Assembly (NCBI GenBank): GCA_031082155.1
Contig: JAVHLL010000006.1
Location: 952-64,951, forward strand
Direction of reading: 5' to 3'
DNA length: 64,000 nucleotides
Source of the DNA: Thermodesulfovibrionales bacterium
GTDB lineage: Bacteria; Nitrospirota; Thermodesulfovibrionia; Thermodesulfovibrionales; SM23-35
The notes beneath the pieces are model-generated. The model was not told the DNA's origin. It saw only the letters and a program-made list of their open reading frames with translations, and did not search any database. The position numbers were made by a program, and so were the translations under genes. Positions 44,929 through 64,000 of the stretch are shown here, one piece after another; positions within the stretch are counted from its first letter, which is position 1; every line of letters starts with the position of its first letter.

Positions 44929-45573
44929 TTATCGAATGTTTGTTATCAGATAGTAGAGAATGATAGTCAATATAACCGCAGCAATCCATCTTTTTCGAGT
45001 GCTTCTAAACTTATACGGATTGTTCAGAGCAATTTTGTGTGGAGCCACTTTGGGTATTCTGGGGACATATACGTCCGTGCTATTCCATTCCTCCAATAAT
45101 CTCGCTTTGGGTCTGTCAACGGAATCACCCAGGGAAAAGGGATAATTCTCCGCCTTGATTTTGTAAGATCTTGTCACATTCCTCATGTTGCCGTCTGTAC
45201 TTACCAGGATTACTCGCCCAATACCTTCTTCCTTGAGCTTTATTGCGGTTCCAACGATCCTGTTGTCAGCGCTGCTGGCGAGATCATCAATGACATGATA
45301 CTGATTGTATATCCTCACGATGGATCCAGCGGAAGTCCTGGCCCCGGTCGATATGTCCTGATAACTTCCCAGCATATCAAGAGTTCTTGTCACCTGCCTT
45401 GCCGCTTTCGCCCTGTGCTCATCCGGATCAGGATGTTTCTTCAACCCGTCAAGTTCTTTGAGAACAGCGGTGGGTATGACGATCTCATTGCCCCCCAGTT
45501 TAAAGAGGACATCCGGATCTTCTATTAACACGCTGGTATCAATCACAAAGATCTTCTTCCTTACATCATCCAA
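44929..45573 (-). CDS. PIN-domain protein (PhoH/YlaK N-terminal type) with a C-terminal membrane anchor
   Basis: KIFVIDTSVLIEDPDVLFKLGGNEIVIPTAVLKELDGLKK...NRIVGTAI...VILVSTDGNMR. The C-terminus has a hydrophobic WIAAVILTIILYYLI helix. Confidence 0.7.
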   Translation of the reverse strand: MDDVRKKIFVIDTSVLIEDPDVLFKLGGNEIVIPTAVLKELDGLKKHPDPDEHRAKAARQVTRTLDMLGSYQDISTGARTSAGSIVRIYNQYHVIDDLASSADNRIVGTAIKLKEEGIGRVILVSTDGNMRNVTRSYKIKAENYPFSLGDSVDRPKARLLEEWNSTDVYVPRIPKVAPHKIALNNPYKFRSTRKRWIAAVILTIILYYLITNIR

Positions 45574-46060: not shown

Positions 46061-46116
46061 GTTTCACTATAATATATAGTTTCACCATATGGTGAAACAG
46101 TCTTATAAAGTGAAAC
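46061..46116 (+). promoter_or_regulatory. nested inverted-repeat operator: GTTTCAC-n11-GTTTCAC-n6-GTGAAAC-n11-GTGAAAC
   Basis: Half-sites at 46061-67, 46079-85, 46092-98 and 46110-16. The central CATATG contains the ATG (46089) of the downstream gene. The geometry matches 39218-39270. Confidence 0.6.
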
Positions 46117-47171: not shown

Positions 47172-47229
47172 TAATGGGTTTTATAATAGTGGGGAAACAG
47201 GATCAAGCGACATATGGAGAGCAGCAATC

Positions 47230-48464: not shown

Positions 48465-51400
48465 GTGCATGATGATTTGACCTTCTTCACGAATGAACCG
48501 GGCGCTACCATCCTTGACAGATTCAGGAAAACCCTGAAAGATGTCCAATTCTTTGATATACTCGTCGGCTATTTCCGAACAAGCGGCTTTTTCCGTCTCT
48601 ACAAATCCTTTGAAACAATAGATAAGATCAGAGTCCTTGTCGGCATAAATATCGATAAGACAGCATTTGAAATAATCGAGTCCTCAAAATCACGGGGAAA
48701 GCTTGATTTCGAATCTCACAAACGGACAAAGGAAGTATTCTCCGACGACCTTGCTTATGAAATGGAACATTCTGAGGACACTTATGATACTGAAATAGGG
48801 GTAAAAAAGTTCATTGAATTTTTACAGTCAGGAAAACTCGAAATCAAAGCCTATCCAAGCTCAAAAATCCATGCAAAGGTTTACATAATCCGGTTTTCTG
48901 AAGAAGACCGTGATTACGGGAGAGTGATTACCGGTTCCAGCAATTTTTCAGAAGCCGGCCTTATTGAAAACCTTGAATTCAATGTTGAACTGAAAAATAG
49001 CGCTGATGTTAAGTATGCCCTCGACAAGTTTGAAGCTTTATGGAAAGATGCTGTTGATATCTCCAAGGAATATGTCGAGACGATAAATGCGAGAACCTGG
49101 CTGAATGATTATATCACCCCATATGAGCTTTATCTGAAATTTCTTTATGAATATCTCAAGGAAGATATCAATATAGATGAGGATTTTGAGAGTTATCTCC
49201 CCGAAGGTTTCCTTGATATGAAATACCAGAAGCAGGCTGTGGTTTCAGCAAAAAAGATACTCGATGCCTATAACGGAGTATTTCTCTCCGATGTCGTCGG
49301 ATTGGGCAAAACATATATTTCAGCGCTTCTCGCGCAACAGCTTCCTGGGAAAATTCTTGTTATCTGCCCTCCCGTTCTTGAGGATTACTGGCATGATACT
49401 TTTTTTGAGTTTGGGATAAGAGGCTACAAAGTTGAATCTCTGGGCAAGCTCGACCATATCATAAAAAGCGGAGCGGAACGATTTGATTATATATTTGTCG
49501 ATGAAGCTCATAGGTTCAGAAATGAAGTGACCCTTGGATATGAAAAACTCCATCAGGTTTGTTTTGGCAAGAAGGTGATCCTCGTTTCGGCAACACCCTT
49601 AAATAACACTATTGACGACATTTACAGCCAATTAAAGCTCTTTCAGGTGCCAAAGAAAAGCACAATCCCCGGCGTCCAAAATCTGGAGAAATTCTTTGGG
49701 TCATTAAAGAAGAGAATAAACAAATATCAGAAAAATCAGCCCGAATATATCGATACAATAAAGCTTGTCTCAAAGGAAGTGAGAGACAAAATCCTCAAAT
49801 TTGTTATGGTCCGAAGGACACGCACAGAGGTTATGAAATACTTCAGTGAAGATATGGAGAAACAGAATGTCTCTTTCCCTGAACTGGACGATCCAAAACG
49901 TATTATCTATACCTTTGACGAGAAGACCGGCGATGTTTTCAACAGAACTATTGCCCTTTTGAAGGATTTCTCCTACTCCAGATATACCCCTTTGCTCTAT
50001 CTAAAGACGCCGGTTTCCGAGTTTGAACTCCAGTCTCAACGGAATATCGGAGGATTCATGAAGGGCATCCTTGTGAAACGACTGGAGAGTAGTTTCCACG
50101 CCTTTAAGAACACCCTTAGACGCTTTGTCGATTCTTACCGGAAATTTATCGAAATGTATCAGCAGGGAACTGTTTACATCAGCAAGAAGGTGAATGTTTA
50201 TGATTTTCTTGATGCTGACAATGAAGAAGAGCTATTGAAGCTTGTGGATCTGGACAGGGTTCAGAAATACGAATCCTCTGAGTTCAAAGAAGAATTTCTT
50301 CGTAACCTTCAGAAAGACCTCACTTTACTTGAAAACATTCAAAAACTATGGAGCGATATAGACTCAGATCCGAAGCTCGAACAATTTATTAATGAGCTGA
50401 AAGAGAATCTCATCTTGAAAGAGAACAAGCTTGTTGTCTTTACAGAATCCAAAGAAACCGGTGAATATCTCTTTAAAAAACTAAACAAGCATCTGCCTTC
50501 AAAGGTTCTTTTCTACTCCAGTGTGGGCGGAATTTATGGAGATGATGAGAAGAGCATACCGGTTGCCCGGAACCTGATTAAGGAAAACTTCGACCCGAAG
50601 AACAAACCGCAGAAAGATGATATCAATATACTGATTGCGACAGATATCCTTGCTGAAGGGATTAATCTGCACCGTTCAAATACGGTCATTAACTACGATC
50701 TCCCGTGGAATCCCACTCGTGTATTGCAGCGGGTAGGCAGGGTAAACCGTGTAGGGACTAAGCACAAAGTGATAAATATCTTCAACTTCTTCCCGACTGC
50801 CCAGTCAGACATGCACCTTGGGTTGGAAGCAAACATAAAAGCCAAGATACAGGCATTCCACGACACTCTCGGGGAAGATTCAAGGTATCTTACCGAAGAA
50901 GAAGAAGTCTCCACTCATGAATTATTTGGCGATTTTATTTATAAGAGATTAAGTGACAAGAAAACGTTTCAGGGGGAAGATGAAGAAGAGCGATCGGAGC
51001 TTGAGTATCTTCAGCTTCTTCGGAATATCCGGGATAAGCACCCTTCCTTATTCAAAAAAATAAAACGTCTTCCCAAAAAGGCCCGAACATGCCGGGAGCT
51101 TGAAAACAACAAGAAAGATAATCTGATTACTTTTTTCAGAAAGGGGAAGCTGAAAAAGTTCTTCCTTGCGGATTCCTCTGCTTCGCGCGAACTAACATTT
51201 TTTGAGGCTGTTGATCTTTTCAAATGTGATTCTGCAACCCCTAAAGCGGCCTTCCCTAAAACCTTTTATCCATTCCTTGATGCGAACAAAGCCGCATTTG
51301 ATCAGGCAACGTCCGACGAGACCGCTGAAAAAGATCATCGAGCCAGTAGTTCGAACGAAAGTTATATCATAAAGCGGCTTAAAGCGAAGGATTTGCAGAA

Positions 51401-51662
51401 ATTTTCGGGCTTTACTGAAGAAGATGAAGAGTTTATAAGGTCAGTCTTGAAGGCCTTTGAAAACGGAGTAGTCCCTAAAAATACCAGCAAACGTCTCAAA
51501 AATGAACTCGAAAAAGAAATTGCTCCTCTTAAAGTGCTTGCCATACTGAAAAAGAATCTCCCCCCGACCATTTTGTCTGTGTCACCCTCCACCCAGAAAA
51601 TCGGACATGACAGAAGAGAAGTGATTCTCTCTGAATATCTGTTGAGAATTGGATTAAAATAA
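48465..51662 (+). CDS. PLD (HKD) nuclease domain fused to an SNF2-family helicase
   Basis: 1065 aa with a GTG start. The HKD motif is KIHAKVYII...TGSSNFSEAGL. Helicase motifs: GLGKT, FVDEAHRFRN, SATPLNN, and ATDILAEGINLH...NYDLPWNPTRVLQRVGRVNRVG. Confidence 0.85.
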   Translation: MHDDLTFFTNEPGATILDRFRKTLKDVQFFDILVGYFRTSGFFRLYKSFETIDKIRVLVGINIDKTAFEIIESSKSRGKLDFESHKRTKEVFSDDLAYEMEHSEDTYDTEIGVKKFIEFLQSGKLEIKAYPSSKIHAKVYIIRFSEEDRDYGRVITGSSNFSEAGLIENLEFNVELKNSADVKYALDKFEALWKDAVDISKEYVETINARTWLNDYITPYELYLKFLYEYLKEDINIDEDFESYLPEGFLDMKYQKQAVVSAKKILDAYNGVFLSDVVGLGKTYISALLAQQLPGKILVICPPVLEDYWHDTFFEFGIRGYKVESLGKLDHIIKSGAERFDYIFVDEAHRFRNEVTLGYEKLHQVCFGKKVILVSATPLNNTIDDIYSQLKLFQVPKKSTIPGVQNLEKFFGSLKKRINKYQKNQPEYIDTIKLVSKEVRDKILKFVMVRRTRTEVMKYFSEDMEKQNVSFPELDDPKRIIYTFDEKTGDVFNRTIALLKDFSYSRYTPLLYLKTPVSEFELQSQRNIGGFMKGILVKRLESSFHAFKNTLRRFVDSYRKFIEMYQQGTVYISKKVNVYDFLDADNEEELLKLVDLDRVQKYESSEFKEEFLRNLQKDLTLLENIQKLWSDIDSDPKLEQFINELKENLILKENKLVVFTESKETGEYLFKKLNKHLPSKVLFYSSVGGIYGDDEKSIPVARNLIKENFDPKNKPQKDDINILIATDILAEGINLHRSNTVINYDLPWNPTRVLQRVGRVNRVGTKHKVINIFNFFPTAQSDMHLGLEANIKAKIQAFHDTLGEDSRYLTEEEEVSTHELFGDFIYKRLSDKKTFQGEDEEERSELEYLQLLRNIRDKHPSLFKKIKRLPKKARTCRELENNKKDNLITFFRKGKLKKFFLADSSASRELTFFEAVDLFKCDSATPKAAFPKTFYPFLDANKAAFDQATSDETAEKDHRASSSNESYIIKRLKAKDLQKFSGFTEEDEEFIRSVLKAFENGVVPKNTSKRLKNELEKEIAPLKVLAILKKNLPPTILSVSPSTQKIGHDRREVILSEYLLRIGLK

Positions 51663-51746
51663 TTCCGTCTCATATATTGACAAAAGCATCTTTATAATGT
51701 ATTCTTTTAGCATAATCTAATTTGAATAATGCAATGGGAGTAGTAA

Positions 51747-52865
51747 ATGCGAAATCCATTTACATTAGGCATAGCTCAGAAAAATGATTTTTGCAACAGA
51801 AAAAAAGAAATAAACGACCTGTTACAGCATGCAAAAAATGGTGATAATACAGTTCTGTTTTCGCCCAGAAGATACGGCAAATCTTCTCTGATAGCAAGGA
51901 TTATCGAACAACTCAGGGAAGAAGGATATCTGACTGTTTATGTGGATCTCTACCCGATAACCTCGGAGCAGGATTTCATTTCAAGGTTTTCCAACGGCAT
52001 TTTTAAAGGGATTGGGCGCGGCGCGGATACCCGTACTATTGCGGACAGGCTCAAAAATATCTTCAGCAGACTTGTCCCGAGTCTTGAGGTTAGGCCTGAG
52101 GGGTATAATATCTCCGCCAGATTTGACCGTACTTCCCAAACAGGGTTGCTGCTTGATGACCTTTTAGACGGACTGTATAAATATGTAAAGAAAGAAAAGC
52201 TCCGGGCATGTATTGCCCTCGACGAATTTCAGGAGATTACCGAACTGCCTGATTCCAAAAAAATAGAGGGCATACTACGCTCGCAAATACAGTTCCACAA
52301 AGAGATATCATATTTTTATATTGGGAGCAGACGCCGGATACTGACGGATATGTTTACCGACAAAAACAGGGCTTTCTACAAGAGCGCGTTTTCATATACG
52401 TTGAAGGAAATAGCCAGGGATGAATTTGTTCCCTTCATAGAGGCAAAATTCAGGAAAACGGGAAAGGTTTGCCCATCGGAGGTGGCAGCAAAAATATACG
52501 ATACCGTCAGAGGCTACCCATATTATGTTCAGAAGCTTTCTTCTATAGCATGGGATATTACGATAAGAAAATGCACTGATGAAATAGTATTTGAATCCTA
52601 TACTCTTCTCCTCACTATGGAAAAGACGGATTTTGAAGGCATATGGGGAGGTCTGGCCCTGATACAGAAATCGGTTTTGAAGGCAATAGCCAAAGAACCG
52701 ACAACATCTCCTTACTCCAGAGAATTTCTCGAAAGACATCGGCTTTCAATAGGCGGCACCCAAAAAGCAATGGACGTCTTACTCTCAAGAGACCTCATAG
52801 AAAAAGATGATGAAGGCAAATACAGGTTGACAGACCCTGTAATGGAGGCGTGGCTTCGGGAGTAA
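51747..52865 (+). CDS. AAA ATPase (archaeal-ATPase/DUF234-like family)
   Basis: 372 aa. FCNRKKEINDL, Walker A SPRRYGKSSL, Walker B CIALDEFQE, and a C-terminal wHTH-like domain. Confidence 0.75.
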   Translation: MRNPFTLGIAQKNDFCNRKKEINDLLQHAKNGDNTVLFSPRRYGKSSLIARIIEQLREEGYLTVYVDLYPITSEQDFISRFSNGIFKGIGRGADTRTIADRLKNIFSRLVPSLEVRPEGYNISARFDRTSQTGLLLDDLLDGLYKYVKKEKLRACIALDEFQEITELPDSKKIEGILRSQIQFHKEISYFYIGSRRRILTDMFTDKNRAFYKSAFSYTLKEIARDEFVPFIEAKFRKTGKVCPSEVAAKIYDTVRGYPYYVQKLSSIAWDITIRKCTDEIVFESYTLLLTMEKTDFEGIWGGLALIQKSVLKAIAKEPTTSPYSREFLERHRLSIGGTQKAMDVLLSRDLIEKDDEGKYRLTDPVMEAWLRE

Positions 52866-52874
52866 CGTAACCAT

Positions 52875-55800
52875 ATGGATAGACAAGAAGCAGTCAGATT
52901 AATTGAAGAAACCTTTAATAAACCATTTGATGAATGGCAGTTCCGGTATTTTGTAAAGAATCTGCTGAATGAAATTGACGAATCGAAGTCATTGGAAATC
53001 CACGGCGCTTACATTAAAAACGCATTTTCAGATTGTATCAGGCAGTATAAACGAATCGGAACATTCACAGACTCTGAAGGGTTAAAGTTGGATGTTCTGA
53101 TTGTGAACCTCAAGAGGGGCATCTCAGTCGAAAGAGCAAGGACCACTCAAAGGAATTTCGTAGCCCACCATCTGAAACAAAGGGATAACAAAGATGCAGC
53201 TTTAGTCGCTTTTTATTCCGATGGATCGGAAGACTGGCGATTTTCTTTTGTCCACATGGATTACAGGACAATCCAGACAGAAAGCGGCAAGGTAAAAGTT
53301 GAGGAAGAACTCACTCCTGCGAGAAGATACTCTTTTCTGGTCGGTGAGAACGAGCCAAATCATACAGCCCGGCAACAACTTGTCCCCATTCTTGAAGATG
53401 ACAGGAATAATCCGACCCTTGCAGATATCGAACATGCCTTTAACATCGAGTCTGTAACCAAAGAATTTTTCAACAGGTATAAAGACCTTTTCCTGAAAGT
53501 GAAAGAGGAGCTGGATACTGTAGTAGTCGTTGATCAAAAAATAAAAACGGAATTCGAGAGCAAGCAAATTGACACTGCAAACTTTGCCAAAAAGCTCCTC
53601 GGCCAGATCGTTTTCCTCTATTTCATTCAGAAAAAGGGCTGGCTGGGTGTCGGTAAAGACAGGACATGGGGTACCGGACCGAGAAACTTCTTACGAAGGC
53701 TTTTTGAGAAAGAGATCGTCAGCTATGACAATTTCTTCAATGATATCCTCGAACCTCTGTTCTACGAAGCACTTGCAATAGACAGAGGGGAAATATCATT
53801 TTACAGCCGGTTCAACTGCAAAATCCCGTTTCTGAACGGCGGCTTGTTCGAACCGATTAATGGTTACAACTGGGAGGAGACGGATATTCTCCTTAAGAAC
53901 GAGACCGTCAGAGAGATCCTCGATACCTTTGACCTTTACAATTTTACCGTCCGGGAGGACGAACCGCTTGAAAGAGAAGTGGCTGTTGACCCTGAAATGC
54001 TCGGAAAGGTTTTTGAGAACCTGCTTGAGGTCAAAGACCGCAAGTCAAAAGGCACCTATTATACCCCTCGCGAGATTGTCCACTACATGTGCCAGGAAAG
54101 CCTCATCAATTATCTGGACACTACTATCAATACTCAGGAAGAGACTGTAATTCCTCAAAAACCTGTTCAGAAAAGTCTTATAGGAGAAGATAAGCCGGAA
54201 CAGGCATCACTTACCGTTCAGACACATAAGGTGGTAATCCCTCGTGAAGACATTGAAGCCTTTATCAGGAGAGGCGATTTTGCAATAAACAATGATCTTG
54301 CGAAAGAACAAGGGACAAAATCATATACCTACAAAATGCCCGAGAGTATACGGAACAATGCGCGGCTCTTTGATGACAAGCTAACAGATATAAAAATCTG
54401 TGACCCTGCCATTGGGTCAGGGGCATTCCCCGTCGGTATGATGCATGAGATTGTTCGGGCAAGAGAAACATTAACAACTTATATTAATGAGGGCAGAAGT
54501 AGAACCGCCTATAATTTCAAACGCCATGCTATCCAAGAGTCGATCTATGGCGTCGACATTGACCCCGGTGCTGTAGATATAGCAAAACTCCGCCTTTGGC
54601 TCTCCCTTGTCGTTGATGAAGATGACTTCAAAACCATCAAGCCTTTGCCTAATCTTGATTATAAGATCGTCTGCGGAGATTCTCTTTCGAGTGTAAATAC
54701 TTTGTTCCATCACATCGAACTCAAGAAGCTTGAGAGGCTCAAAGCGAAATACTTTGAGGAGACCAGACCCAGAGAAAAGACACATATAAAAGAAGAAATT
54801 GATAATCTCATAAGCGAGATTACGAATAATGATAAGCATTTCGACTTTAAAGTCTATTTCAGCGAAGTTTTTCATAAAAATGGTGGATTCGACATTGTGC
54901 TCGCAAATCCTCCATACATACGTCACGAAACTATCAGGGAGTTGAAACCTGAGCTAAAGAAGGAATTCGGCGATTTCTTTTGCGGCACGGCAGACATCTA
55001 TACTTATTTCTACAAGAAGGGAATCGAACTGCTAAAGCCATACGGTCACCTTTGCTTTATCGCGCCAAACAAATTTATGCGGGCCGGCTACGGCAAGAAT
55101 ACTCGAAAATTGCTTGCTACACAGGTAACGCCGAAGGTGATCATCGATTTCTGCGATCTCCCGATATTTGATGCAACGACATATCCGTCAATTATCCTTG
55201 TTGAGAAAACGCCTTTTGTAGGGGCGGCCCTATGTGGCCGCCCTGATTTGATTAATCAACAACCACCAAAAGAAGGGCAACCACACAGGGTTGCCCCTAC
55301 AAAAACGGAATTTCTTGCCGCAACATTTACCGACGCCGCCCAATTGGAACGGCTGGAAGAAACCCTATCAAACATTGGATTTCCAATACCAATCTCTTCA
55401 TTGAGAGAAGAAGGCTGGAATCTTGAGCGGCCTGAGATTTTAGCGTTGATGGAAAAACTGCGCAAAGCCGGAACGCCGCTTGATGAGTATGTGCAGGGAC
55501 GGTTTTATCGGGGCATATTGACAGGTCTTAATGAGGCTTTTGTAATTGATGAAGTTACTCGGAAAAACCTTATTTCAGAAGACCCTAAAAGCGAAGAACT
55601 TATCAAGTCGTGGTTAAGAGGAAGGGATATTAAGAAATGGAAGGCTGAATGGGCAGGATTGTATTTGATAAATATTCCAAGTAGTGCAAATCATCACTGG
55701 CAATGGTCAGATGAAAAAACTGAGGGAAAGGCGAAAAAAATATTTTCCCGAACTTATCCCGCCATCCATAAACACCTGTCGCAGTGGGAAGACAGGCTTG

Positions 55801-56264
55801 TCAAGCGCGATGACCAAGGGAAATTTTGGTGGGAATTAAGGTCATGTGCTTATTACAAAGAATTCGAGCAGCCGAAGATTGTTTATCCCAATATTACAAA
55901 AACAAACATCTTTTCTTTCGATACAACCGGCATCCTGACCAATCAGAAATGTTTTATTATCCCCACCGATGACCTCTGTCTTTTGGCAATTCTCAATTCC
56001 AGTCTTGGGATGCAATGGTTCGTTTCAACACTTCCCTTGCTGAGGGGCAGCTTTTTTGAACCGAGTGCCATTTTTATGCAACATTTTCCTATTGCCTCCG
56101 CCTCCGACAAGCAGAAAGCCCCCATTATCGAGCGCGTTCAGACCATCCTTGCCAATCCCGACAGCCCGGATGTCCCTCGCCTCGAAGCGGAGATAAATAA
56201 ATTGGTCAACGATCTTTACAACCTCACGCTGGAGGAGATTGCGATTGTGGAGGGGAAAAGATAA
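52875..56264 (+). CDS. Eco57I/PglX-like N6-adenine DNA methyltransferase (type IIG/IIL-like, 1129 aa)
   Basis: Motif I ICDPAIGSGAFP and motif IV VLANPPYIRHE. The C-terminal half is target-recognition-like. I could not recognise a nuclease motif in the N-terminal ~380 aa. Confidence 0.85.
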   Translation: MDRQEAVRLIEETFNKPFDEWQFRYFVKNLLNEIDESKSLEIHGAYIKNAFSDCIRQYKRIGTFTDSEGLKLDVLIVNLKRGISVERARTTQRNFVAHHLKQRDNKDAALVAFYSDGSEDWRFSFVHMDYRTIQTESGKVKVEEELTPARRYSFLVGENEPNHTARQQLVPILEDDRNNPTLADIEHAFNIESVTKEFFNRYKDLFLKVKEELDTVVVVDQKIKTEFESKQIDTANFAKKLLGQIVFLYFIQKKGWLGVGKDRTWGTGPRNFLRRLFEKEIVSYDNFFNDILEPLFYEALAIDRGEISFYSRFNCKIPFLNGGLFEPINGYNWEETDILLKNETVREILDTFDLYNFTVREDEPLEREVAVDPEMLGKVFENLLEVKDRKSKGTYYTPREIVHYMCQESLINYLDTTINTQEETVIPQKPVQKSLIGEDKPEQASLTVQTHKVVIPREDIEAFIRRGDFAINNDLAKEQGTKSYTYKMPESIRNNARLFDDKLTDIKICDPAIGSGAFPVGMMHEIVRARETLTTYINEGRSRTAYNFKRHAIQESIYGVDIDPGAVDIAKLRLWLSLVVDEDDFKTIKPLPNLDYKIVCGDSLSSVNTLFHHIELKKLERLKAKYFEETRPREKTHIKEEIDNLISEITNNDKHFDFKVYFSEVFHKNGGFDIVLANPPYIRHETIRELKPELKKEFGDFFCGTADIYTYFYKKGIELLKPYGHLCFIAPNKFMRAGYGKNTRKLLATQVTPKVIIDFCDLPIFDATTYPSIILVEKTPFVGAALCGRPDLINQQPPKEGQPHRVAPTKTEFLAATFTDAAQLERLEETLSNIGFPIPISSLREEGWNLERPEILALMEKLRKAGTPLDEYVQGRFYRGILTGLNEAFVIDEVTRKNLISEDPKSEELIKSWLRGRDIKKWKAEWAGLYLINIPSSANHHWQWSDEKTEGKAKKIFSRTYPAIHKHLSQWEDRLVKRDDQGKFWWELRSCAYYKEFEQPKIVYPNITKTNIFSFDTTGILTNQKCFIIPTDDLCLLAILNSSLGMQWFVSTLPLLRGSFFEPSAIFMQHFPIASASDKQKAPIIERVQTILANPDSPDVPRLEAEINKLVNDLYNLTLEEIAIVEGKR
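55218..55301 (+). repeat. in-frame palindromic element (28 codons) inside the methyltransferase gene
   Basis: The outer pair gtagggg (55218-24) / cccctac (55294-300) encloses two hairpins: gggcggcc/ggccgccc (55222-29/55236-43) and gggcaacc/ggttgccc (55275-82/55289-96). It translates as VGAALCGRPDLINQQPPKEGQPHRVAPT. Confidence 0.6.
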
Positions 56265-56327
56265 GCTGTAATGCTGTTATATTAACAACAGGTCTTTGAG
56301 GAAATGTAATTGCTGGAGGTTTAATAA

Positions 56328-57278
56328 ATGACAACTAATAGATGGACTGGATGGGCTGGATATGTTCAGGGAACTAATCGCGGGAAAGCCTTTGTTCACA
56401 TCAAAATATCAAATGCGACTTTAATCGGTGATTTTGTCTTTAAAGATATTGCATATGGAACAGCGGCTGCCAAAATTAAGGGGAGACTCAACAATAGCCA
56501 AATTACAGCCGACCTCTTTGATTTTGTTTTTGCCAAGCCTCTGCCGTTAGAGCCACAGGCAGGTCAAATATCGATGACCATCTCAGAAGATGGTAGTGAA
56601 CTCTCTGGAGCATGGGCTACGGATATTGGAACTCATGGTCAATGTCATCTTTTTAAAATTAACTTTTTTAGGGCATTACCTATATTTTCACCGCTTTTAT
56701 ATCGAACATTTCTTTTTATAAAACGTGGGCTTATTGCAAATTTAAAGTACCTTTATTTAGTTTTCTCGCTTCTTGTGATGATTACTTCAGCAACAGGTGT
56801 TTTAAAAGAGAAAATTGGCCTAACAGAGACTATTATATTAATAATTCCATTGATATTTCTTTTTCAAAATGAGATCAGGAATTTTTTCATTATTACGGGC
56901 TTAAAAAAAATAGGGCCCGTTGAATTTCAAGAACAAACAGCTACCCCCGTTGGAATAAATCAAGAAGTTATAAGTAGACTTGTTCAGGAATATGCACAAC
57001 TATTCCCTTTTTTCGTTTACTTAAATCAATTTTTTGTACCACGTACAAAGGCGCTTTTACGTATACTCGCAGCTGCACCTTCAATCACACGAGGAACTTT
57101 CAATCAATATGCGCGTGTTTTAGGAATCGAAGAAAGTAATATTCAGGTAACCTATGACGTTCTTGAGTTAAATCAGTGCTTGCAAGTAGACCCAAATGGG
57201 CTTATTAGTGTTACTGAAATTGGGCAGAGGTTTCTCGAATTTGAAAGTCGCTTCAATCAACTTTTTCCTTCAAGATGA
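56328..57278 (+). CDS. hypothetical membrane protein
   Basis: 316 aa with a GGAGG RBS. A soluble N-terminal ~110 aa, three to four TM helices (about residues 115-190), and a C-terminal ~120-aa soluble domain. No family recognised. The sequence is AT-rich. Confidence 0.5.
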   Translation: MTTNRWTGWAGYVQGTNRGKAFVHIKISNATLIGDFVFKDIAYGTAAAKIKGRLNNSQITADLFDFVFAKPLPLEPQAGQISMTISEDGSELSGAWATDIGTHGQCHLFKINFFRALPIFSPLLYRTFLFIKRGLIANLKYLYLVFSLLVMITSATGVLKEKIGLTETIILIIPLIFLFQNEIRNFFIITGLKKIGPVEFQEQTATPVGINQEVISRLVQEYAQLFPFFVYLNQFFVPRTKALLRILAAAPSITRGTFNQYARVLGIEESNIQVTYDVLELNQCLQVDPNGLISVTEIGQRFLEFESRFNQLFPSR

Positions 57279-57306
57279 ACGAAAGAGAAACCCAAACCTG
57301 GAAAGA

Positions 57307-57392
57307 GGACAGGTACATTTTCTGAAGGGGGAAAGAGTGATAGAAACGACGAAAATGGAACTCGATCAAATCGGGGTCTAGCTTGAAATACA
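57307..57392 (+). pseudogene. duplicated 5' region and first codons of tcmP (decayed copy)
   Basis: ggacaggtAcattttct...ATGgaactcgatcaaatcggggtcTAG (MELDQIGV*) compares with ggacaggtGcattttct...ATGaaacttgatcaaataggcttctgg (MKLDQIGFW...) at 58573-58660. Confidence 0.55.
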
Positions 57393-57473
57393 AATGATTC
57401 GCGAGAGGCGCTTCCGCGCGCTGGCGAAGATTGAAAAAGATACCATCTTAAATTTATTCAAGAGGCGACATCA

Positions 57474-58559
57474 ATGAGGGAAGCTTTTGACTTACGGGTA
57501 AGAAAGGATCGAGAAGCTCTGGCAAAATTTCTTCCAACTATAGACAACTATACTTTCACTATTTCACGAAGAGATTTTATTGAGGCGCTGTCTTCCCTAT
57601 CATTATTCTTAAGAGAGCCTGAATGGTTGATATACCAGTATGGAACTCTTGGACCTATACCCGCAGGGAAGTCAAAGTTGGTTTTTTCGATCTCCCGTGC
57701 TTGCGAGTTGGGTATATGGCTTAGAGATTTATCCAGATTTAGAGATTTTGATAAACTTACAGCCGGTTTTTCGAATCCTACGCAATTCGAAGACAGTTGT
57801 TTTGAGACAAAAGTCGCTCACTGGTTTTCAACCCTGCCAGCTATCAGAGATATTATGTTCTCTCCTTCTTATCTGGTGAACGGGAAAATAAAAAATCCAG
57901 ATTTCGATGTGAATGGTATTTGCGGAAGTTTAACTGTTGAATGTAAACGACCACATCATTATGTTCAGCAGGCATTTCAGAAGTTTAATAATGCTGTCGC
58001 AGAATTCCAAGCTGCGATGAAGAAAAGACAATGGCCTGATCATTTGCGTTTGGAAATCGAGATGATTGGCAATATTAGAGAATCGCTGCAAACACTAACT
58101 CAAAATACAATTGACATAGCTCTAAAAACCTCTAAGAAATGGATAAAACGATTCTCTTATAAAGATACTGTTCGTGGTTTTGTTGTAAAGCGTAACTCGT
58201 TGTTCCGCCTTACCAATGTGAAAGTCCACACAGATATAATGATAATCGGAGATAAAGCCACGGGATTACTTAACCCAGAATTCACATTACTGCGGGTTGG
58301 TACGAATCGATTAGACGCTCTGCAGAGGAAATCTATTGGTTCACGAATAGCTGATGCACTTCACCAACTTCCTAAGGATCGTAATTGCATTATTTTTGTT
58401 GGAGGAGTCCCATATCGTATAACTGAACCGGCTTGTAAGGATAGGCTGTCAGATAAGGCATATTCACACGTCAGAGCATTTGGCGCATGGGACGATGAGT
58501 TAAAGTTTGTATATAGGAGACGTGACAGAGCGTTCATACGCTCTCTTTTTGGAATATAA
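57474..58559 (+). CDS. hypothetical protein with a PD-(D/E)xK nuclease-like motif
   Basis: 361 aa. KNPDFDVNGICGSLTVECKRP fits PD...(D/E)xK. No family recognised. Confidence 0.45.
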   Translation: MREAFDLRVRKDREALAKFLPTIDNYTFTISRRDFIEALSSLSLFLREPEWLIYQYGTLGPIPAGKSKLVFSISRACELGIWLRDLSRFRDFDKLTAGFSNPTQFEDSCFETKVAHWFSTLPAIRDIMFSPSYLVNGKIKNPDFDVNGICGSLTVECKRPHHYVQQAFQKFNNAVAEFQAAMKKRQWPDHLRLEIEMIGNIRESLQTLTQNTIDIALKTSKKWIKRFSYKDTVRGFVVKRNSLFRLTNVKVHTDIMIIGDKATGLLNPEFTLLRVGTNRLDALQRKSIGSRIADALHQLPKDRNCIIFVGGVPYRITEPACKDRLSDKAYSHVRAFGAWDDELKFVYRRRDRAFIRSLFGI

Positions 58560-58630
58560 TGCAGAAAAAAGTGGACAGGTGCATTTTCTCTATGCAATGA
58601 GTAAAGGGAATAGATTGTTAGAGGGATGAG

Positions 58631-59455
58631 ATGAAACTTGATCAAATAGGCTTCTGGTCTGAAATAAAGCTTGAGATAATCAAGAAATACGCTGGCGCAT
58701 ATACGAGCATTATGAAAAATCAGTCATGGTGCAAGGGGTATGTATACATTGATGCATTTGCTGGAGCCGGCAAGCACATCAGTAGGCAAACTGGGGAAAT
58801 GGTTCCTGGATCGCCGTTAAATGCCCTTGAGGTTAAGCCTCCTTTTACAGAATATTTTTTCATCGATCTTGCCGAAGAAAGAGCAGATGTTTTTATTGAA
58901 CTTGCCAGGGAGAATCCTAATATCCATTCTTACCATGGTGACTGCAACGAAGTCCTTATTAACGATATCTTTCCCAATCTTGGATGGGACACGTTTAAAA
59001 GAGCATTATGTATTCTTGATCCGTATGGGTTACATCTTAAATGGGAAACAATAAAGAAAGCTGCTGAGTTAAAGACAGTAGATATCTTTATCAACTTTCC
59101 AATAATGGATATCAATCGGAATGTACTATTTGATGATTTCGCTAAAGCTGCACCTGAAAATATTGCAAGAATGAACGCTTTTTGGGGTGATGCAAGCTGG
59201 AAGGAATTGTTGTATAAAGAACAGGATACCCTTTTTGGTGATAAACAACACATTAAGCTTGAAGGATATCCTACTCTTGCAAAAGAGTTCGGGGAAAGAG
59301 TTAAAAATATAGGTTTCAAGAGTGTGCCGGAGCCGATCCTGATGAGAAATGTAAAGAACGGTCCTCTTTATTATCTGTATTTTGCATCTCAAAAGGATGT
59401 TGCTAAGGACATCAGCAAAGATATTTTTAATAGATATAAAAAAGGCCAAAAATGA
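58631..59455 (+). CDS. tcmP: three-Cys-motif partner protein TcmP-like (methyltransferase-fold candidate)
   Basis: 274 aa. FWSEIKLEIIKKY...YVYIDAFAGAGKH...GSPLNAL...ILDPYG matches my recollection of the TcmP family (TIGR04474). Confidence 0.7.
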   Translation: MKLDQIGFWSEIKLEIIKKYAGAYTSIMKNQSWCKGYVYIDAFAGAGKHISRQTGEMVPGSPLNALEVKPPFTEYFFIDLAEERADVFIELARENPNIHSYHGDCNEVLINDIFPNLGWDTFKRALCILDPYGLHLKWETIKKAAELKTVDIFINFPIMDINRNVLFDDFAKAAPENIARMNAFWGDASWKELLYKEQDTLFGDKQHIKLEGYPTLAKEFGERVKNIGFKSVPEPILMRNVKNGPLYYLYFASQKDVAKDISKDIFNRYKKGQK

Positions 59456-60603
59456 AAAAGACTAATCTCTATAACGATAATCATCCAATGTTAGATATGA
59501 AGACCGGGGAGCAGGTGATTAAATATGGTCAAGAACCCAAGCCACAACCTCTTGTCTCCGAACTTTGGGCAATTCGGGGACATTGTGATGAGTTAAGAGC
59601 CCAGAAAATATCCAAAAGAGCAAATTTGCCTCTTCAGTGGTTCGACAAAATACCATCTCTGAACAGAACAAAAGGGATAGAGAAGCTCAGGGCTGAACGA
59701 GGGGTGCTTTTATTAAGAAACCGGACAAGTGCTTTTATAGATCAGTTCCAACATCCTATCGGCAGATGTTCCAAATTCTACAAGTTAACTGCTTACAACA
59801 ACTGTAATTTCTGGTGTGAGTATTGTTATCTGTACCTAACATTTAGAAATATGCCCATATCCACGCATTTCGTAAATTATGACAAGATGTTCCGCGAAAT
59901 AATCAGCTTTGACAAAGCGAATATTCCAGACATGCTAAGAGTTTTGAATCTCGGTGAACTTTGCGACCCCTTGGCAGTTGAAGATATAACAGGGTTTGCT
60001 GAAGAACTCATCCCATTTGCTGCACAGGAAACTTACAAGACAAAGCTGCTCTTCCTTACAAAAAGTGACAATGTAGATTCTTTATTGAATATAGAACATG
60101 GGGGTCGGTCGATAATGTCTTTCAGTATCAATACTGATAAGGTTTACCAGCAACTTGAACATAGAACCGCTTCTCCAGAGGCAAGATTAATAGCAGCGAA
60201 GAAACTGCAGCAAGCCGGGTATGAGATACGCTTGAGGATAGATCCTGTTATCCTTTATTCAACATGGAAAAAAGATTATATCGATCTTGTTGAAAAAATA
60301 TTTGTATTTGTTAAACCCGAACGGATTACCATAGGAGAATATCGTCCCTCAAAAGGCCTTGCTTCACACATCAGCTCTCGCTTTCCTTATTCTCCTCTCC
60401 TCAAGATTAATTCCGGATTAGTTAACGATGGACCAAAACTAAGATATCCTGAAGAACACCGCCTGGCAATGTTCAGAGTTATTGTCGATGCGATAAAGAA
60501 ACATGACAAGAAAATTAAAATCGCCCTCTGCAAAGAGGATGTCAAAATTTGGAAAAACCTTGACATGCAAATTAATGGATTACAATGTAACTGTCTCGGT
60601 TAG
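59452..60603 (+). CDS. radical SAM protein (SplB/DNA-photolyase-like, COG1533-type)
   Basis: 383 aa. AYNNCNFWCEYCYLY carries CxxxCxxC. The ATG overlaps the tcmP stop (ATGA), so the two are translationally coupled. Confidence 0.75.
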   Translation: MKKTNLYNDNHPMLDMKTGEQVIKYGQEPKPQPLVSELWAIRGHCDELRAQKISKRANLPLQWFDKIPSLNRTKGIEKLRAERGVLLLRNRTSAFIDQFQHPIGRCSKFYKLTAYNNCNFWCEYCYLYLTFRNMPISTHFVNYDKMFREIISFDKANIPDMLRVLNLGELCDPLAVEDITGFAEELIPFAAQETYKTKLLFLTKSDNVDSLLNIEHGGRSIMSFSINTDKVYQQLEHRTASPEARLIAAKKLQQAGYEIRLRIDPVILYSTWKKDYIDLVEKIFVFVKPERITIGEYRPSKGLASHISSRFPYSPLLKINSGLVNDGPKLRYPEEHRLAMFRVIVDAIKKHDKKIKIALCKEDVKIWKNLDMQINGLQCNCLG

Positions 60604-61118
60604 TTTGACTGTAAGTCATCATGTTTTCTCGCTTGCCTGACCTCTATACTTAGAGAATAAAAAAAGGAGAAAGTGGGCTACCCCTTTCCTCAGAACACGA
60701 TTTTTGCTCTGCACAATCGATGAAGCTTCTTTGGTAACCTCTCTAAGATTAAGAAATCATCTTTGCGAAAAAGGAACTGTCCCCTGTTGTTGTGCAACCC
60801 ATAGTTAGAGTATTCGACGCAGGAGATATTGGACTTCTCCAGAGAGGTACCGTCTCTCAGCTAATATCATCGAGAATATAACGCTGTGAGGCGAATAGCT
60901 ACCCATCGGATCGTCAAAATATCTAGTGACATAAAATTCACCTTATCAGACAGTATTAAGTCAGGACCAAAAAACTAATAATTACAGCAAGTTAGTTCAT
61001 GCCCGTTTTTCAGGGTGGGATATGGACACGTGTATGGGGATGCGCACAGGGTGCGGCATGGTCTGCATCTGAACAATTAATTCAAAGACAGGTCTGAAGC
61101 GGAGTCGGAACAAGCTTG

Positions 61119-62204
61119 TCACAACTCCCCATTTTTCCATTTTTTCCACTCGCCTATTGCGCCGAACGAAACAGCAGATTGACCTGTTATCCCGGTTTTT
61201 TGAATATACACCTGGTGCCATTTTTCTTTTTCACTTTCGGGAAGAGCGTTGAATTCCAACTCCAGCCTTTCGTCAATTTCTCGGATCTGTTCAGATTTCA
61301 TTCTGGCGACGAAACGTCTTTCCTCTTCCCTGTGTTTAACCTCAATGAGCTGGCCTGGAGTAGGACACTCGGGTGGATGCAGGATACCAGCACGTATCAT
61401 CCCCTCGATGACATTTCTCCATGTTTTATCGACAACATACCCATTCTGCACCTGCCAATGAAGAACCCAAAGCGCATGATATATTTTGCCCCTGGACAAC
61501 TTGGGATGTGCGAGCACAACGCTCTCGGCTACCGAGAGGGCGCTAATGGGTAAAAATTCTGCGACTTTGTCTTGTGTGTATTCTCTTTCTTCTTCATTAT
61601 CAATAACTACTACATTCGGCTGCTGTCCCGTAGTAGTTCTTTGCGTATTCTCTGAGGTATTCTTTGTATTAGAATTGAGGTCAAGTTCTTTCATTTCTGC
61701 ATCTGTCGGTTGATGCTCTCCAGAAGATGCAGTTTTATTATCTACAGTAGATGAAGAATAATTATCTGCTGCTGAATCGGTTAGGCCATCTATAATACCC
61801 TGTACAACGGTCTGATTCCTTCGGTACCATGTAAGGCCTGTTCGTTTGTCGATATAGCTCAGATAAGGCTTTTCCATAAATGGATTTCCTGCCAGTGATG
61901 CTTCTATAAAAGCAGTCTTGGATTTGTATCTGATCCCTATTTCGTCAAATGCGTTTCTGAATTCAGAAGAACTAAAGCTTAAAACCTCGGTGAAGGAATC
62001 ACCTTCACGGTAGTCCTTATGGTCCGGACAGGGTTCCATGAATTTGTAGAATGGTTCGCCTTCCTTGATACTAAACAGATACTCAAGCTGTTGAAACAGT
62101 ATTGAACCGGAAATCGACTTTGCGATCTTTCGCAGTGCCGGATAATATGGTATGCACCGTGAAGTCAGAGCAAGAACATTTTTTTTGTATTCCCCCATAG
62201 GCAC
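61119..62204 (-). CDS. hypothetical protein (possible replication/DNA-binding protein of the element)
   Basis: 361-aa ORF with a low-complexity acidic/polar middle. Its position is upstream of the sigma-like gene in the regulatory module. The functional guess is weak. Confidence 0.4.
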   Translation of the reverse strand: MPMGEYKKNVLALTSRCIPYYPALRKIAKSISGSILFQQLEYLFSIKEGEPFYKFMEPCPDHKDYREGDSFTEVLSFSSSEFRNAFDEIGIRYKSKTAFIEASLAGNPFMEKPYLSYIDKRTGLTWYRRNQTVVQGIIDGLTDSAADNYSSSTVDNKTASSGEHQPTDAEMKELDLNSNTKNTSENTQRTTTGQQPNVVVIDNEEEREYTQDKVAEFLPISALSVAESVVLAHPKLSRGKIYHALWVLHWQVQNGYVVDKTWRNVIEGMIRAGILHPPECPTPGQLIEVKHREEERRFVARMKSEQIREIDERLELEFNALPESEKEKWHQVYIQKTGITGQSAVSFGAIGEWKKWKNGEL

Positions 62205-62206
62205 CT

Positions 62207-62797
62207 CTACACTGCTTCGAGAGAACGGCCCGAAATCAGTTGACGCATGATTTTGGGTGCGCGTTTCTCTAATGCATAGACTTTGCTCAAAGGCATTCCG
62301 AGCGTAATGGATGTTTCCTGGAGCGTATAACCCTGCAGCCGCAGGCTCAGAACAGCCTGCATTGGCGGAGTGAGCAGACTTAACGCCTTATTGATATGCA
62401 TTTTTTCAACGATTGCTTCTTCGGTGTTCTTATTGGACTGAGGAAGTTCGCCCCCCGTCTCTACCATTTCTTCCAGGCTCTCTGTTTTGTGACTCAGAAA
62501 AAGATCTCTGAATGCCTGCCTCAGGCTGAGTACGAGTATCGCACACGCATGTCTTTCGTTGACGATAGATACATGAGATACCAAAAAACGGCTGATGCCC
62601 TCATGTGCGACTTCCTCCCAATCGTAGTCACAGTACTTTGTTTTTGCAATCAGCAGTAGCCATGGATATTTCCTTTCAACAACTGCTCCTCTCTCCTCCA
62701 ACGTGTTATAATCGTGGCGAGGGGGAGCGCCAAGTGCGTTTACCTGACCTATACGGCACCTCCTTTTGAAGAGGTGGTGCTGTCCTATCAGTTCCAC
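62207..62797 (-). CDS. sigma-70-like / LuxR-type HTH protein
   Basis: The C-terminus LSLLTPPMQAVLSLRLQGYTLQETSITLGMPLSKVYALEKRA resembles sigma region 4. Confidence 0.5.
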   Translation of the reverse strand: MELIGQHHLFKRRCRIGQVNALGAPPRHDYNTLEERGAVVERKYPWLLLIAKTKYCDYDWEEVAHEGISRFLVSHVSIVNERHACAILVLSLRQAFRDLFLSHKTESLEEMVETGGELPQSNKNTEEAIVEKMHINKALSLLTPPMQAVLSLRLQGYTLQETSITLGMPLSKVYALEKRAPKIMRQLISGRSLEAV

Positions 62798-62885
62798 CTC
62801 TTATTTTAAATTAGTTAGCGTTAACCAATAACATTGTTAGTAATATACACTAGCCTTTAATTTATATCAAGGTTTGTTTTATTTG

Positions 62886-62914
62886 TTGACAATGTTAGTA
62901 GTTTCCGTTATAAT
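62886..62914 (+). promoter_or_regulatory. consensus sigma-70 promoter (TTGACA-17 nt-TATAAT) giving a probable leaderless mRNA
   Basis: TTGACA at 62886-91 and TATAAT at 62909-14. The ATG at 62921 lies 6 nt after the -10 box with no SD. The ATGTTAGTA repeat sits in the spacer. Confidence 0.6.
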
Positions 62915-62920
62915 TTTTGT

Positions 62921-63691
62921 ATGAAGAAAAAGAATGAATCTAAAACTGAGTTGGGTGCTCTTTTTGCGGTGGTTAGAAAAGGGAAGGGAATAACTCAGAA
63001 TGATATTGCAGAAGCAGTCGGCCTGGCACGTTCCGCCATCGCACAGTTTGAGCGGGGCCATGCATCTCTCAGTAATGACACTCTTATAAAAATTGCCCCT
63101 CTCCTGAACATAAATCCGGATTATATTGCTATCAAAGAGGTGAATCCATTCAAGAGTGGCAGCAATGACCTCATTAAGCTATATCTGCCCGAAAACACCA
63201 TGACCTTGGCTCTCGACTATTCACTGATATATTTTCTTGCTGCAACTGAGGCAAACAGATCCCTGGACTTCTTGTTTCTCTCTCCCGACGTTAGGGCTGC
63301 CACTATCGTTAACCCGTTTGAAGCAGTCATCTATGCTATGGCCGCGCGCGATTCGGCAAATAACATTTTTCTATTCAGACGAAAATCACACATGGCCTGG
63401 GGAAGTGTCACAGGAGAAAAAGAGTTGCAGACAAGAATTACTCAACTGTCCGAAGAAAAGGGGAAAAAGATCTCCTTCAAAATAAAAAAGATTGATAGCC
63501 GTCTCTACGAAATAATACGCGAGTGGACTGCCGTTCGAAGAGATATAGAACCTTTATTTGAATCCGCTGAGATACCTTTGATGAGTTCGTTGACAGATGC
63601 GGAAAAGAAACTCATTGCTGAAATGAGGACAAAAAAGATTTCTCCATCAAAAGTAATTCGCAGCCTTGATGAGTTTGACAAGAAGCATTAA
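62921..63691 (+). CDS. XRE-family HTH repressor-like protein (cI-like)
   Basis: The N-terminus LFAVVRKGKGITQNDIAEAVGLARSAIAQFERG is an HTH motif. The C-terminal domain of about 180 aa is of unknown family. Confidence 0.7.
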   Translation: MKKKNESKTELGALFAVVRKGKGITQNDIAEAVGLARSAIAQFERGHASLSNDTLIKIAPLLNINPDYIAIKEVNPFKSGSNDLIKLYLPENTMTLALDYSLIYFLAATEANRSLDFLFLSPDVRAATIVNPFEAVIYAMAARDSANNIFLFRRKSHMAWGSVTGEKELQTRITQLSEEKGKKISFKIKKIDSRLYEIIREWTAVRRDIEPLFESAEIPLMSSLTDAEKKLIAEMRTKKISPSKVIRSLDEFDKKH

Positions 63692-63747
63692 GTCAGTTTC
63701 ATACATTTCTTTATTAACCCTTAATATTCGTTGGACTAAAATTCGAT

Positions 63748-64000
63748 CTAACCTAAAACTTCTCTCTTGGCAATTTCAATGATTCTGTCTACGTCAGTTA
63801 CGCTTGTGGCCAGGGTCTTCTTGCTCTTCACCGGTTGCTTGAAGCCGGGCTTTATCCTGTCCTTTGCATCTCGGGACTTTGAATCCAACCACGCCTGAAT
63901 CTCTGACTCCTTGAATCTCAACAGTCGCCCCGTGATCTTCAGGCAAGGTATTTGTTTCCGCGCGACCATGCCGTATACAGACACTTTTTCAATGGTTAGA
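63748..64000 (-). CDS. excisionase/AlpA-family DNA-binding protein (5' end beyond window)
   Basis: The frame is open to the window edge: ...LTIEKVSVYGMVARKQIPCLKITGRLLRFKESEIQAWL. This is the typical excisionase-family HTH_17 pattern. Confidence 0.7.
   Translation of the reverse strand, partial: LTIEKVSVYGMVARKQIPCLKITGRLLRFKESEIQAWLDSKSRDAKDRIKPGFKQPVKSKKTLATSVTDVDRIIEIAKREVLG

Follow-up and report, generated by a model that had tools for sequence, protein, structure and literature searches.

We analysed a 64,000-nucleotide stretch of DNA from a Thermodesulfovibrionales bacterium (hereafter called the window) and examined two adjacent genes at positions 58631–60603, which encode a protein of the three-Cys-motif partner family (TcmP) and a radical S-adenosylmethionine (SAM) protein resembling spore photoproduct lyase (SPL). 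The pair is a real, well-conserved two-gene module. Its kind is known but uncharacterised: PADLOC catalogues the candidate anti-phage system PDC-M41, of which the pair represents a variant with a swapped partner. The two genes quite possibly form a self-contained, horizontally mobile, two-enzyme module whose SAM-dependent reactions target a base in nucleic acid, probably DNA, during conflict with phages or mobile elements, a reading that we favour tentatively.

The TcmP gene (58631–59455, 274 aa, matching TIGR04474) and the radical SAM gene (59452–60603, 383 aa, matching PF20903) were both called as open reading frames (ORFs) on the forward strand, and both start with ATG. They share the four nucleotides ATGA at 59452–59455 of the forward strand, in which the TGA stop codon of the TcmP gene (59453–59455) lies over the ATG of the radical SAM gene (59452–59454). 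A preliminary description of this DNA had reported two coupled ORFs sharing this overlap and had quoted the motifs IDAFAGAGK and ILDPYG in the first protein and CNFWCEYC in the second; the coordinates and the overlap were verified, and the motifs were all found (residues 40–48, 128–133, and 118–125, respectively). The ATGA overlap couples the translation of the two genes, and a 4-nt overlap of the same genes was also observed in five other loci (L004–L008). Upstream of the TcmP gene, the top promoter-like match in the region 56000–61400 (TTCATA-16-TATAAT, 10 of 12 positions) was located at 58533–58560 on the forward strand, and a terminator-like hairpin (58527–58544) at the end of the preceding ORF overlaps this site. 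The gap between the preceding ORF and the TcmP gene is 71 nt. The total number of promoter-like matches in 56000–61400 was no higher than in shuffled sequence. The promoter-like site and the hairpin are weakly suggestive of, and consistent with, a transcription unit that comprises the pair alone.

The search with hidden Markov models upheld the assignment of the 274-aa protein to TcmP, and for both proteins of the pair the family matches greatly exceeded what chance would give. The protein matched TIGR04474 with an E-value of 3.1e-61 and 207.6 bits (cutoff, 53) over nearly the full length of the model (residues 9–269 against model positions 2–262 of 263), and it matched the PADLOC model PDC-M41A (PDLC04638) with an E-value of 4.7e-67. 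No matches of any kind were obtained in Pfam, and none in PHROG. The TcmP family, which is defined as the partner of a "three-Cys-motif" enzyme, comprises 3,660 clusters at 50% identity. The AlphaFold2 model of TcmP, which was built from 34 homologues, had a pLDDT (predicted local distance difference test) score of 90.7 and a pTM (predicted template modelling) score of 0.88. The best matches of this model in the PDB, searched using Foldseek, were RlmJ (6qdx, 6qe5, and 4blu) and the DUF519 protein 2oo3, with E-values of 3e-6 to 1e-5 and a template modelling (TM) score of about 0.53; these were followed by generic class-I SAM methyltransferases, including weaker matches to RsmD/YhhF. Alignment of a profile of diverse TcmPs with Escherichia coli RlmJ using hhalign gave a probability of 87% and an E-value of 3.9e-6. 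The global hhalign alignment breaks down at the N-terminus because of a subdomain inserted in RlmJ, and a correspondence between K13 of TcmP and K18 of RlmJ would therefore be no more than a guess. A sequence-profile search of the PDB with TcmP returned nothing meaningful, whereas the fold comparison and the hhalign alignment to RlmJ were successful.

The alignments with RlmJ located three motifs in TcmP, all encoded on the forward strand. The SAM-binding motif I (IDAFAGAGK, residues 40–48; 58748–58774) was identified by BLASTP, which pairs YIDAFAGAGKH of TcmP with YLDTHAGAGRY of RlmJ. The GSPL motif (residues 60–63; 58808–58819) and the motif IV-like ILDPYG (residues 128–133; 59012–59029) were identified by hhalign, which pairs VPGSPL with YPGSPL and LCILDP-YG with LILIDPPYE, the catalytic motif IV of RlmJ. 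D130-P-Y132 of TcmP aligns with D164-P-P-Y of RlmJ across a one-residue gap and has one Pro fewer. LDPYGL is the dominant form of motif IV in TcmPs irrespective of the class of the partner. G60, S61, and P62 were invariant in two alignments (A1 and A4). In the diverse alignment (A3), which contains TcmPs 31–58% identical to the query, D41, F43, S61, N106, D130, and P131 were at least 90% conserved. Conservation of these residues among such distant sequences indicates that TcmP is probably an active SAM-dependent enzyme, and we infer that it transfers a methyl group. TcmP is confidently predicted to adopt the fold of a compact class-I SAM methyltransferase similar to RlmJ, in which motif I and GSPL are present and DPPY takes the form DP-Y, an assignment that is new here; the methyltransferase-like character proposed earlier for this protein is thereby backed by both the model and the hhalign result. 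Apparent domain fusions of TcmP were uninformative, as one (P0287) was a tandem duplicate and two (P0269 and P0252) were products of a frameshift or a wrong start.

With regard to the 383-aa protein, the Pfam SPL family PF20903 was matched with an E-value of 1.5e-31 and 110 bits (cutoff, 27), and comparison of its profile with Geobacillus SPL gave an E-value of about 1e-25. The scores were far below the cutoffs of the SPL equivalog models TIGR04070 (138.4 vs 400 bits) and TIGR03886 (69 vs 437.55 bits). The AlphaFold2 model (pLDDT 72.5) matched SPL (4fhg) with an E-value of 4.5e-17 and TM scores of 0.64 and 0.71 over about 360 columns; the next-best fold had an E-value of 1.7e-4, and the matches to other radical SAM barrels were weaker. 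The protein is basic, with an isoelectric point (pI) of 9.2. The databases contained 499 relatives from Nitrospirota, Brocadiales, Desulfobacterota, and others, many of which are full-length and 63–90% identical. Searches against PHROGs found one unannotated family, and the match to prokaryotic viperin (pVip) was not significant (E 0.0056). No match to PDC-M41B or M30B of PADLOC was obtained, and PADLOC would therefore not call the window pair as PDC-M41.

The radical SAM cluster motif C118-x3-C122-x2-C125 (CNFWCEYC, residues 118–125; 59803–59826, forward strand), together with Y124 and Y126, was invariant in 34 homologues. C118, C122, and C125 align with C90, C94, and C97 of SPL, and Y124 and Y126 align with the relay tyrosines Y96 and Y98 of SPL (CHYCY). 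The hydrogen donor of SPL, Cys140 in Geobacillus and C141 in B. subtilis, aligns with the invariant Glu169; some family members have Gly or Ser instead of Cys171, which is located two residues further on. Four additional cysteines were found beyond those of SPL: Cys106 (59767–59769), and C-terminally Cys360 (LCKE) and Cys379-Asn-Cys381 (CNC), which are encoded within 60529–60594, all on the forward strand. These four residues were invariant in close homologues and in 33–36% identical relatives on viral contigs. The cysteines of B. subtilis SPL are the three cluster residues and C141 only. Because the four extra cysteines are invariant and B. subtilis SPL lacks them, C106, C360, C379, and C381 can reasonably be regarded as a candidate second metal or Fe-S site. 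The protein did not pass either the equivalog score test or the catalytic Cys test, which indicates that it is SPL-like but not SPL. The resemblance to SPL and COG1533 that had been noted before thus stands for the family and the fold, but does not extend to SPL proper in view of the scores, the Glu in place of Cys140, and the four extra cysteines.

We examined how constantly the two genes occur together. TcmP was encoded directly upstream of the radical SAM subtype of the window in 29 of 32 loci, often with the 4-nt overlap, and the adjacency is thus not due to chance. The three exceptions (L001–L003) are a single Loosdrechtia locus sampled three times, in which an IS3 transposase abuts the gene; this locus was considered as a natural form without TcmP and was rejected as an orphan beside the transposase. 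All-versus-all clustering of the neighbours in the 32 loci gave no conserved third gene, and the apparent third-gene clusters, seen in 7–8 loci, were antisense ORFs inside the two genes. In a survey seeded with TcmP (80 genome loci, 47–84% identity, 76 of them assessable), the class of the partner was assigned from the gene directly after TcmP. A three-Cys radical-SAM-type gene adjoined TcmP in 70 of the 76 assessable loci: a DUF5131 protein (PF07505, which corresponds to PDC-M41B/M30B of PADLOC; motif GCx6CxxCYA) in 50, an SPL-like protein of the window type in 15 (one cut by the contig end), a small PF04055 radical SAM protein of 256–267 aa with GCSHGCKYPCY (CX3CX3C) in 4, and a PA0069/Rv2578c-like radical SAM protein in 1. 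The class was unclear in 6 loci, and 4 more were not assessable. On IMG/VR viral contigs, 77 of 80 TcmP genes had such a neighbour, comprising 59 DUF5131, 16 small radical SAM, and 2 SPL-like proteins. In one of these contigs (L100), a 35% identical SPL-like gene overlaps the TcmP gene in reversed order. A typical DUF5131 partner (locus L030) matched PDC-M41B with an E-value of 1.9e-122, and DUF5131 partners of TcmP also matched the radical SAM mobile pair protein A, TIGR04471 (3e-21).

The partners of TcmP were exchanged over short evolutionary distances. TcmPs that are 72–78% identical to that of the window adjoin the small radical SAM protein instead (L011–L014), and the radical SAM protein of L093 (TcmP at 7172–7978) is about 76% identical to that of the window, while its TcmP is only 27% identical; the combination in L093 provides evidence that partners were recently exchanged. 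Motifs I and IV of TcmP were the same in every partner class. Since the partners swap over short distances and motifs I and IV remain unchanged, the chemistry of TcmP appears to be constant while the radical SAM "warhead" varies. These results indicate that TcmP and a three-Cys radical SAM enzyme form an almost obligate pairing in which the partners are interchangeable. SPL, DUF5131, and MJ0683-like proteins are subgroups 5-3, 5-2, and 5-1, respectively, of one radical SAM megacluster, Megacluster 5 (RadicalSAM.org; PMC9477430). The preliminary description had stated that no function was known for the pairing. This holds insofar as the literature that was searched yielded no functional study, but the pairing itself had already been recognised, as TcmP plus DUF5131 is catalogued as PDC-M41.

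The Loosdrechtia orphan was observed in the Candidatus Loosdrechtia chromosome (L001:8000–11200), where the radical SAM copy directly adjoins the IS3-type transposase and a DUF1998/MZB fragment; three radical SAM/B12 genes form a cluster of their own further downstream. In L186 (1700–6200), a close relative of the window island, a DUF1016/YhcG gene of the PD-(D/E)xK type and other genes have been inserted into the TcmP gene and divide it, and the radical SAM gene is intact with 82% identity. L186 was considered as evidence for the DUF1016 nuclease as an alternative partner, and this was rejected, as TcmP there is broken by the insertion.

The genes flanking the pair differed completely between loci. 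They encode AbiE, RadC, and an Eco57I-type methylase in L004; OLD/UvrD, HEPN/NTase, and Macro proteins in L007; and AbiE and a Type III restriction-modification (RM) system in L095. In L089–L092, the pair is part of a minimal insertion among housekeeping genes (homoserine dehydrogenase to pantothenate kinase/BirA/EF-G) with an adjacent transposase; an unannotated gene for a 330–347-aa protein follows the pair inside the same insertion (L089:9241–10284). Among 121 neighbours in 18 non-redundant loci, the top families were N6_Mtase, Eco57I, N6_N4_Mtase, AAA_15/21 with OLD-TOPRIM (Gabija-like), ResIII, AbiEii, UvrD, RadC, Macro, and IS66. Overall, the neighbours belonged mostly to RM, Gabija/OLD, AbiE, toxin-antitoxin (TA), and transposase classes. 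No association with a metabolic operon, which had been named beforehand as evidence against a defence role, was found in this survey, and the defence-island setting assigned earlier was upheld. The RM methylases near the pair are read as co-residents of the islands because their type, position, and integrity all vary.

TcmP was rare in sequenced phages (5 of 50,697 records). In Gordonia phage BaxterFox it is flanked by the immunity repressor and the integrase, and in one Synechococcus phage it is accompanied by a convergent DUF5131 gene. On viral contigs, the neighbours of TcmP included CI-type repressors, terminase, portal, and recombinase genes, which are accessory, moron-type positions; a SAM synthetase (one protein) was also present among them. 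Four viral contigs (L127, L132, L143, and L150; approximately 6800–12000) had the recurrent order of an approximately 378-aa protein, TcmP, the three-Cys partner, and a 700–810-aa protein, and this four-gene layout may represent a larger system containing TcmP. The SPL-like subtype of the window was essentially absent from viral collections and, according to the record titles of the loci, was observed solely in lineages of anaerobes (Nitrospirota, Desulfobacterota, Syntrophales, Brocadiales, and others). The host genomes, which are metagenome-assembled and belong to these and similar lineages, are not from known spore formers. As one unit, the pair is transferred horizontally between defence islands and accessory loci of prophages.

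We infer the nucleic-acid substrate of the pair, as well as the order of the steps, the product, and the biological effect, as follows. TcmP would bind SAM through motif I (D41-x-F-x-G-x-G). A flipped-out base would be accommodated in the pocket formed by D130-P-Y132, and its exocyclic amino group would be methylated or otherwise engaged, in the manner of RlmJ, which acts on N6 of A2030. The SPL-like enzyme would carry a [4Fe-4S] cluster on C118, C122, and C125 and cleave a second SAM to a 5′-deoxyadenosyl radical. By analogy with the reaction of SPL on the thymine dimer, this radical would take a hydrogen from that base or from one next to it, with Y124 and Y126 as the putative radical relay. 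The base would end up modified or cross-linked and would thereby either mark or disable the DNA. A nucleic-acid substrate is favoured because the best structural relatives of the two proteins are a base-flipping rRNA N6-methyladenosine (m6A) methyltransferase (RlmJ) and a DNA-lesion lyase (SPL), and because the radical SAM protein is basic; the SOS regulation of COG1533/SplB genes in several phyla (PMC8565304) points in the same direction. A role in conflict with phages is favoured by the RM, abortive infection (Abi), and OLD neighbours, the accessory positions on viral contigs, and the listing of PDC-M41A in PADLOC. No radical SAM enzyme other than SPL is known to act on the bases of duplex DNA.

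Several points weigh against this reading. RlmJ acts on RNA and not on DNA, and TcmP may not be a methyltransferase, as its motif IV is one Pro short and the helical subdomain of RlmJ is absent. The hydrogen-donor Cys of SPL is replaced by Glu169, and the pLDDT of the radical SAM model corresponds to moderate confidence only. The pair is not accompanied by a conserved nuclease or any other conserved effector, so that modification for self-marking in the classical sense would lack its restriction half. The earlier proposal that the pair installs or removes a DNA base modification for self-marking is thus still a hypothesis, and the logic of a classical RM system is argued against unless the radical SAM enzyme were the effector. 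In addition, some copies are decaying (L001 and L186), residence in defence islands is guilt by association, and the literature searched on TcmP, DUF5131, PDC-M41/M30, SPL with defence, and RlmJ with radical SAM enzymes contained no functional study.

A radical SAM effector would make the pair a complete two-gene analogue of an RM system, in which methylation by TcmP is the self-mark of the host and the SPL-like enzyme damages or cross-links unmarked invader DNA. Such a radical-based system would account for the lack of a separate conserved nuclease, and it agrees with the position of the methyltransferase-like gene, which comes first and is translationally coupled as is typical of toxin/immunity and RM operons, with the swapping of effector-like radical SAM classes against a constant TcmP chemistry, and with the defence-island and prophage accessory context. 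We nevertheless consider it improbable: no sequence-recognition domain (target recognition domain) is evident in the 274-aa TcmP, some loci have a reversed order or convergent genes, and the known SPL reaction runs towards repair. Moreover, orphan radical SAM genes persist without an intact TcmP (Loosdrechtia and L186), which a toxic effector should not do unless it is inactive. Modification of rRNA or tRNA by the pair, for example as a translation shut-off triggered by infection or as protection of RNA from phage or toxin nucleases, appears improbable to a similar degree. The closest solved relatives of TcmP are rRNA methyltransferases (RlmJ and, more weakly, RsmD/YhhF), and radical SAM enzymes often modify RNA, as do RlmN/Cfr, MiaB, and TYW1. 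The other half of the pair, however, is specifically SPL-like, by 13 orders of magnitude in the Foldseek E-value over any other radical SAM fold, and SPL acts on DNA; the patchy and mobile distribution is also not that of a housekeeping function.

The chemistry of SPL raises the question of genuine DNA repair, in which the SPL-like lyase would repair a lesion of non-spore DNA and TcmP would be an accessory factor for lesion recognition. The fold and the conserved Tyr relay would fit such a lyase, and in several phyla the SOS regulon includes COG1533 SplB genes (PMC8565304). The hosts, according to the record titles, are mostly non-sporulating anaerobes of dark habitats; the loci are RM, Abi, TA, and transposase islands, unlike operons for repair or the SOS response; the gene occurs sporadically, has moved horizontally, and is often in decay; and the position of the catalytic Cys is not conserved. 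These observations make repair a very improbable function of the pair. A route to a small molecule, in which a viperin-like radical SAM enzyme makes an antiviral nucleotide analogue and TcmP methylates its substrate or product, has slightly less probability still. Stand-alone radical SAM defence enzymes do exist, namely the prokaryotic viperins and Ophion, a radical SAM defence system unrelated to the TcmP pair (bioRxiv 10.1101/2025.09.30.679545), and both the very weak match to pVip and the SAM synthetase beside one viral TcmP could be read in this direction. That match is, however, insignificant, and the fold is SPL-like and not viperin-like; furthermore, TcmP resembles polynucleotide base-flipping methyltransferases, and the radical SAM protein is strongly basic.

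The pair of the window is part of a long island with the order AbiEi, PIN, and metallophosphoesterase; AbiEi_2 and Fic; PLD-SNF2, ATPase, and Type IIG; two unknown proteins; the pair; and regulators. The island includes an AbiEi-like protein (42653–43462), a PIN_4 and metallophosphoesterase pair on the reverse strand (43994–45573), and an overlapping AbiEi_2-like and Fic pair (46089–48273). The block at 48465–56264 encodes a PLD(HKD)+SNF2 helicase fusion, an ATPase_2 protein (51747–52865), and a Type IIG-like Eco57I methylase. The fusion is DrmD-like and matched C3a139 "HKD+Snf2" of PADLOC (1.5e-60), and the 1129-aa methylase matched PDLC03596 with 958 bits. This block is a separate, RM/DISARM-like three-gene block. 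Library scans showed that the pair had correctly been described as lying downstream of a methylase/helicase-nuclease block; a functional link between them was rejected, as the block is not conserved with the pair.

Two ORFs separate the Type IIG methylase from the pair. A 316-aa ORF with a hydrophobic centre (56328–57278), situated between the methylase and a 361-aa ORF, had no match in any library. The 361-aa ORF (57474–58559) had no match in Pfam, NCBIfam, PADLOC, PHROG, or the PDB, and its earlier label as PD-(D/E)xK-like could not be verified. Its family contains only 16 database proteins, which occur singly in unrelated contexts, such as beside a PIN gene or a GGDEF gene. As a member of an orphan family that occurs elsewhere without the pair, it was rejected as a component of the module and may be a rare stand-alone mobile gene. 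The framing of the pair together with the methylase/helicase block and this ORF was consequently abandoned, as neither is conserved with the pair. Downstream of the pair, the genes at 61119–63984 encode an unknown protein of 361 aa, a protein resembling sigma-70 region 4, an XRE-type regulator, and an HTH_17 (excisionase-type) protein; an integrative element may have its regulatory end here. The window contains no tRNA gene.

TcmP is a large family without a Pfam model, a structure, or an assigned function, and the radical SAM superfamily has DUF5131 and the SPL/COG1533-like enzymes as two of its large branches that are still uncharacterised. The SPL-like variant makes up a compact cassette of two genes with strong conservation, and such a small operon offers an experimental handle. 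Should the pair turn out to modify or damage DNA through radical chemistry, phage defence or DNA epigenetics would gain a new biochemical principle, and several "dark" families would gain a function at once; if it were inactive in assays of such functions, the catalogued PADLOC candidate could be downgraded. A more far-reaching view, which we regard as rather unlikely, is that TcmP and Megacluster 5 radical SAM enzymes constitute a new class of nucleic-acid-targeting immunity or modification systems in which radical chemistry, and not a nuclease, acts on DNA. The product would then be an unknown hypermodified or methylene-bridged base, or the radical SAM enzyme would be a "radical restriction enzyme" checked by methylation by TcmP. 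The SPL-like, DUF5131, and small partners would then be warheads that can replace one another, and the four-Cys site would provide the SPL family with a new feature, a second metal or Fe-S centre.

We compared the two proteins and the pair with known systems. The radical SAM protein shares with SPL (SplB; PDB 4FHC–4FHG) the fold, the CX3CX2C motif with the relay tyrosines (CxYCY), the PF20903 match, and the basic character. It differs from SPL in that its N- and C-terminal regions are unalignable by sequence and in that it is obligately paired with TcmP in mobile islands of non-sporulating anaerobes. TcmP shares with RlmJ (23S rRNA m6A2030 methyltransferase, DUF519) the class-I Rossmann fold and the alignable motif I (hDxxAGAG) and GSPL, and a putative motif IV, DP(P)Y, can also be aligned. 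The identity between the two is 11–13%, and the spacing from motif I to GSPL is approximately 10 residues in TcmP and approximately 50 in RlmJ. Unlike RlmJ, TcmP is mobile, is paired with a radical SAM enzyme, and possesses an approximately 100-aa C-terminal extension of its own. TcmP is not a member of the RlmJ family, because it does not match the RlmJ Pfam model and lacks the helical subdomain; its DP-Y may be an altered form of DPPY. The radical SAM mobile pair A/B (TIGR04471/TIGR04470) and PA0069/Rv2578c (COG1533) are likewise sporadic, uncharacterised, and linked to mobile elements, and the small and PA0069-like partners of TcmP and, weakly, the window protein match TIGR04470/PA0069/Rv2578c. 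The mobile pair, however, consists of two radical SAM proteins without TcmP, and all scores obtained here were far below the family cutoffs. PDC-M41 (TcmP plus DUF5131; the three-Cys-motif/TcmP pair of TIGRFAMs) has in common with the window pair the TcmP component A, the tight two-gene layout, the defence-island and prophage accessory context, and a partner from Megacluster 5 with an N-terminal three-Cys motif. The two are distinguished by this partner, which is an approximately 250-aa DUF5131 protein with GCx6CxxC in PDC-M41 and a 383-aa SPL-family protein with CX3CX2C in the window.

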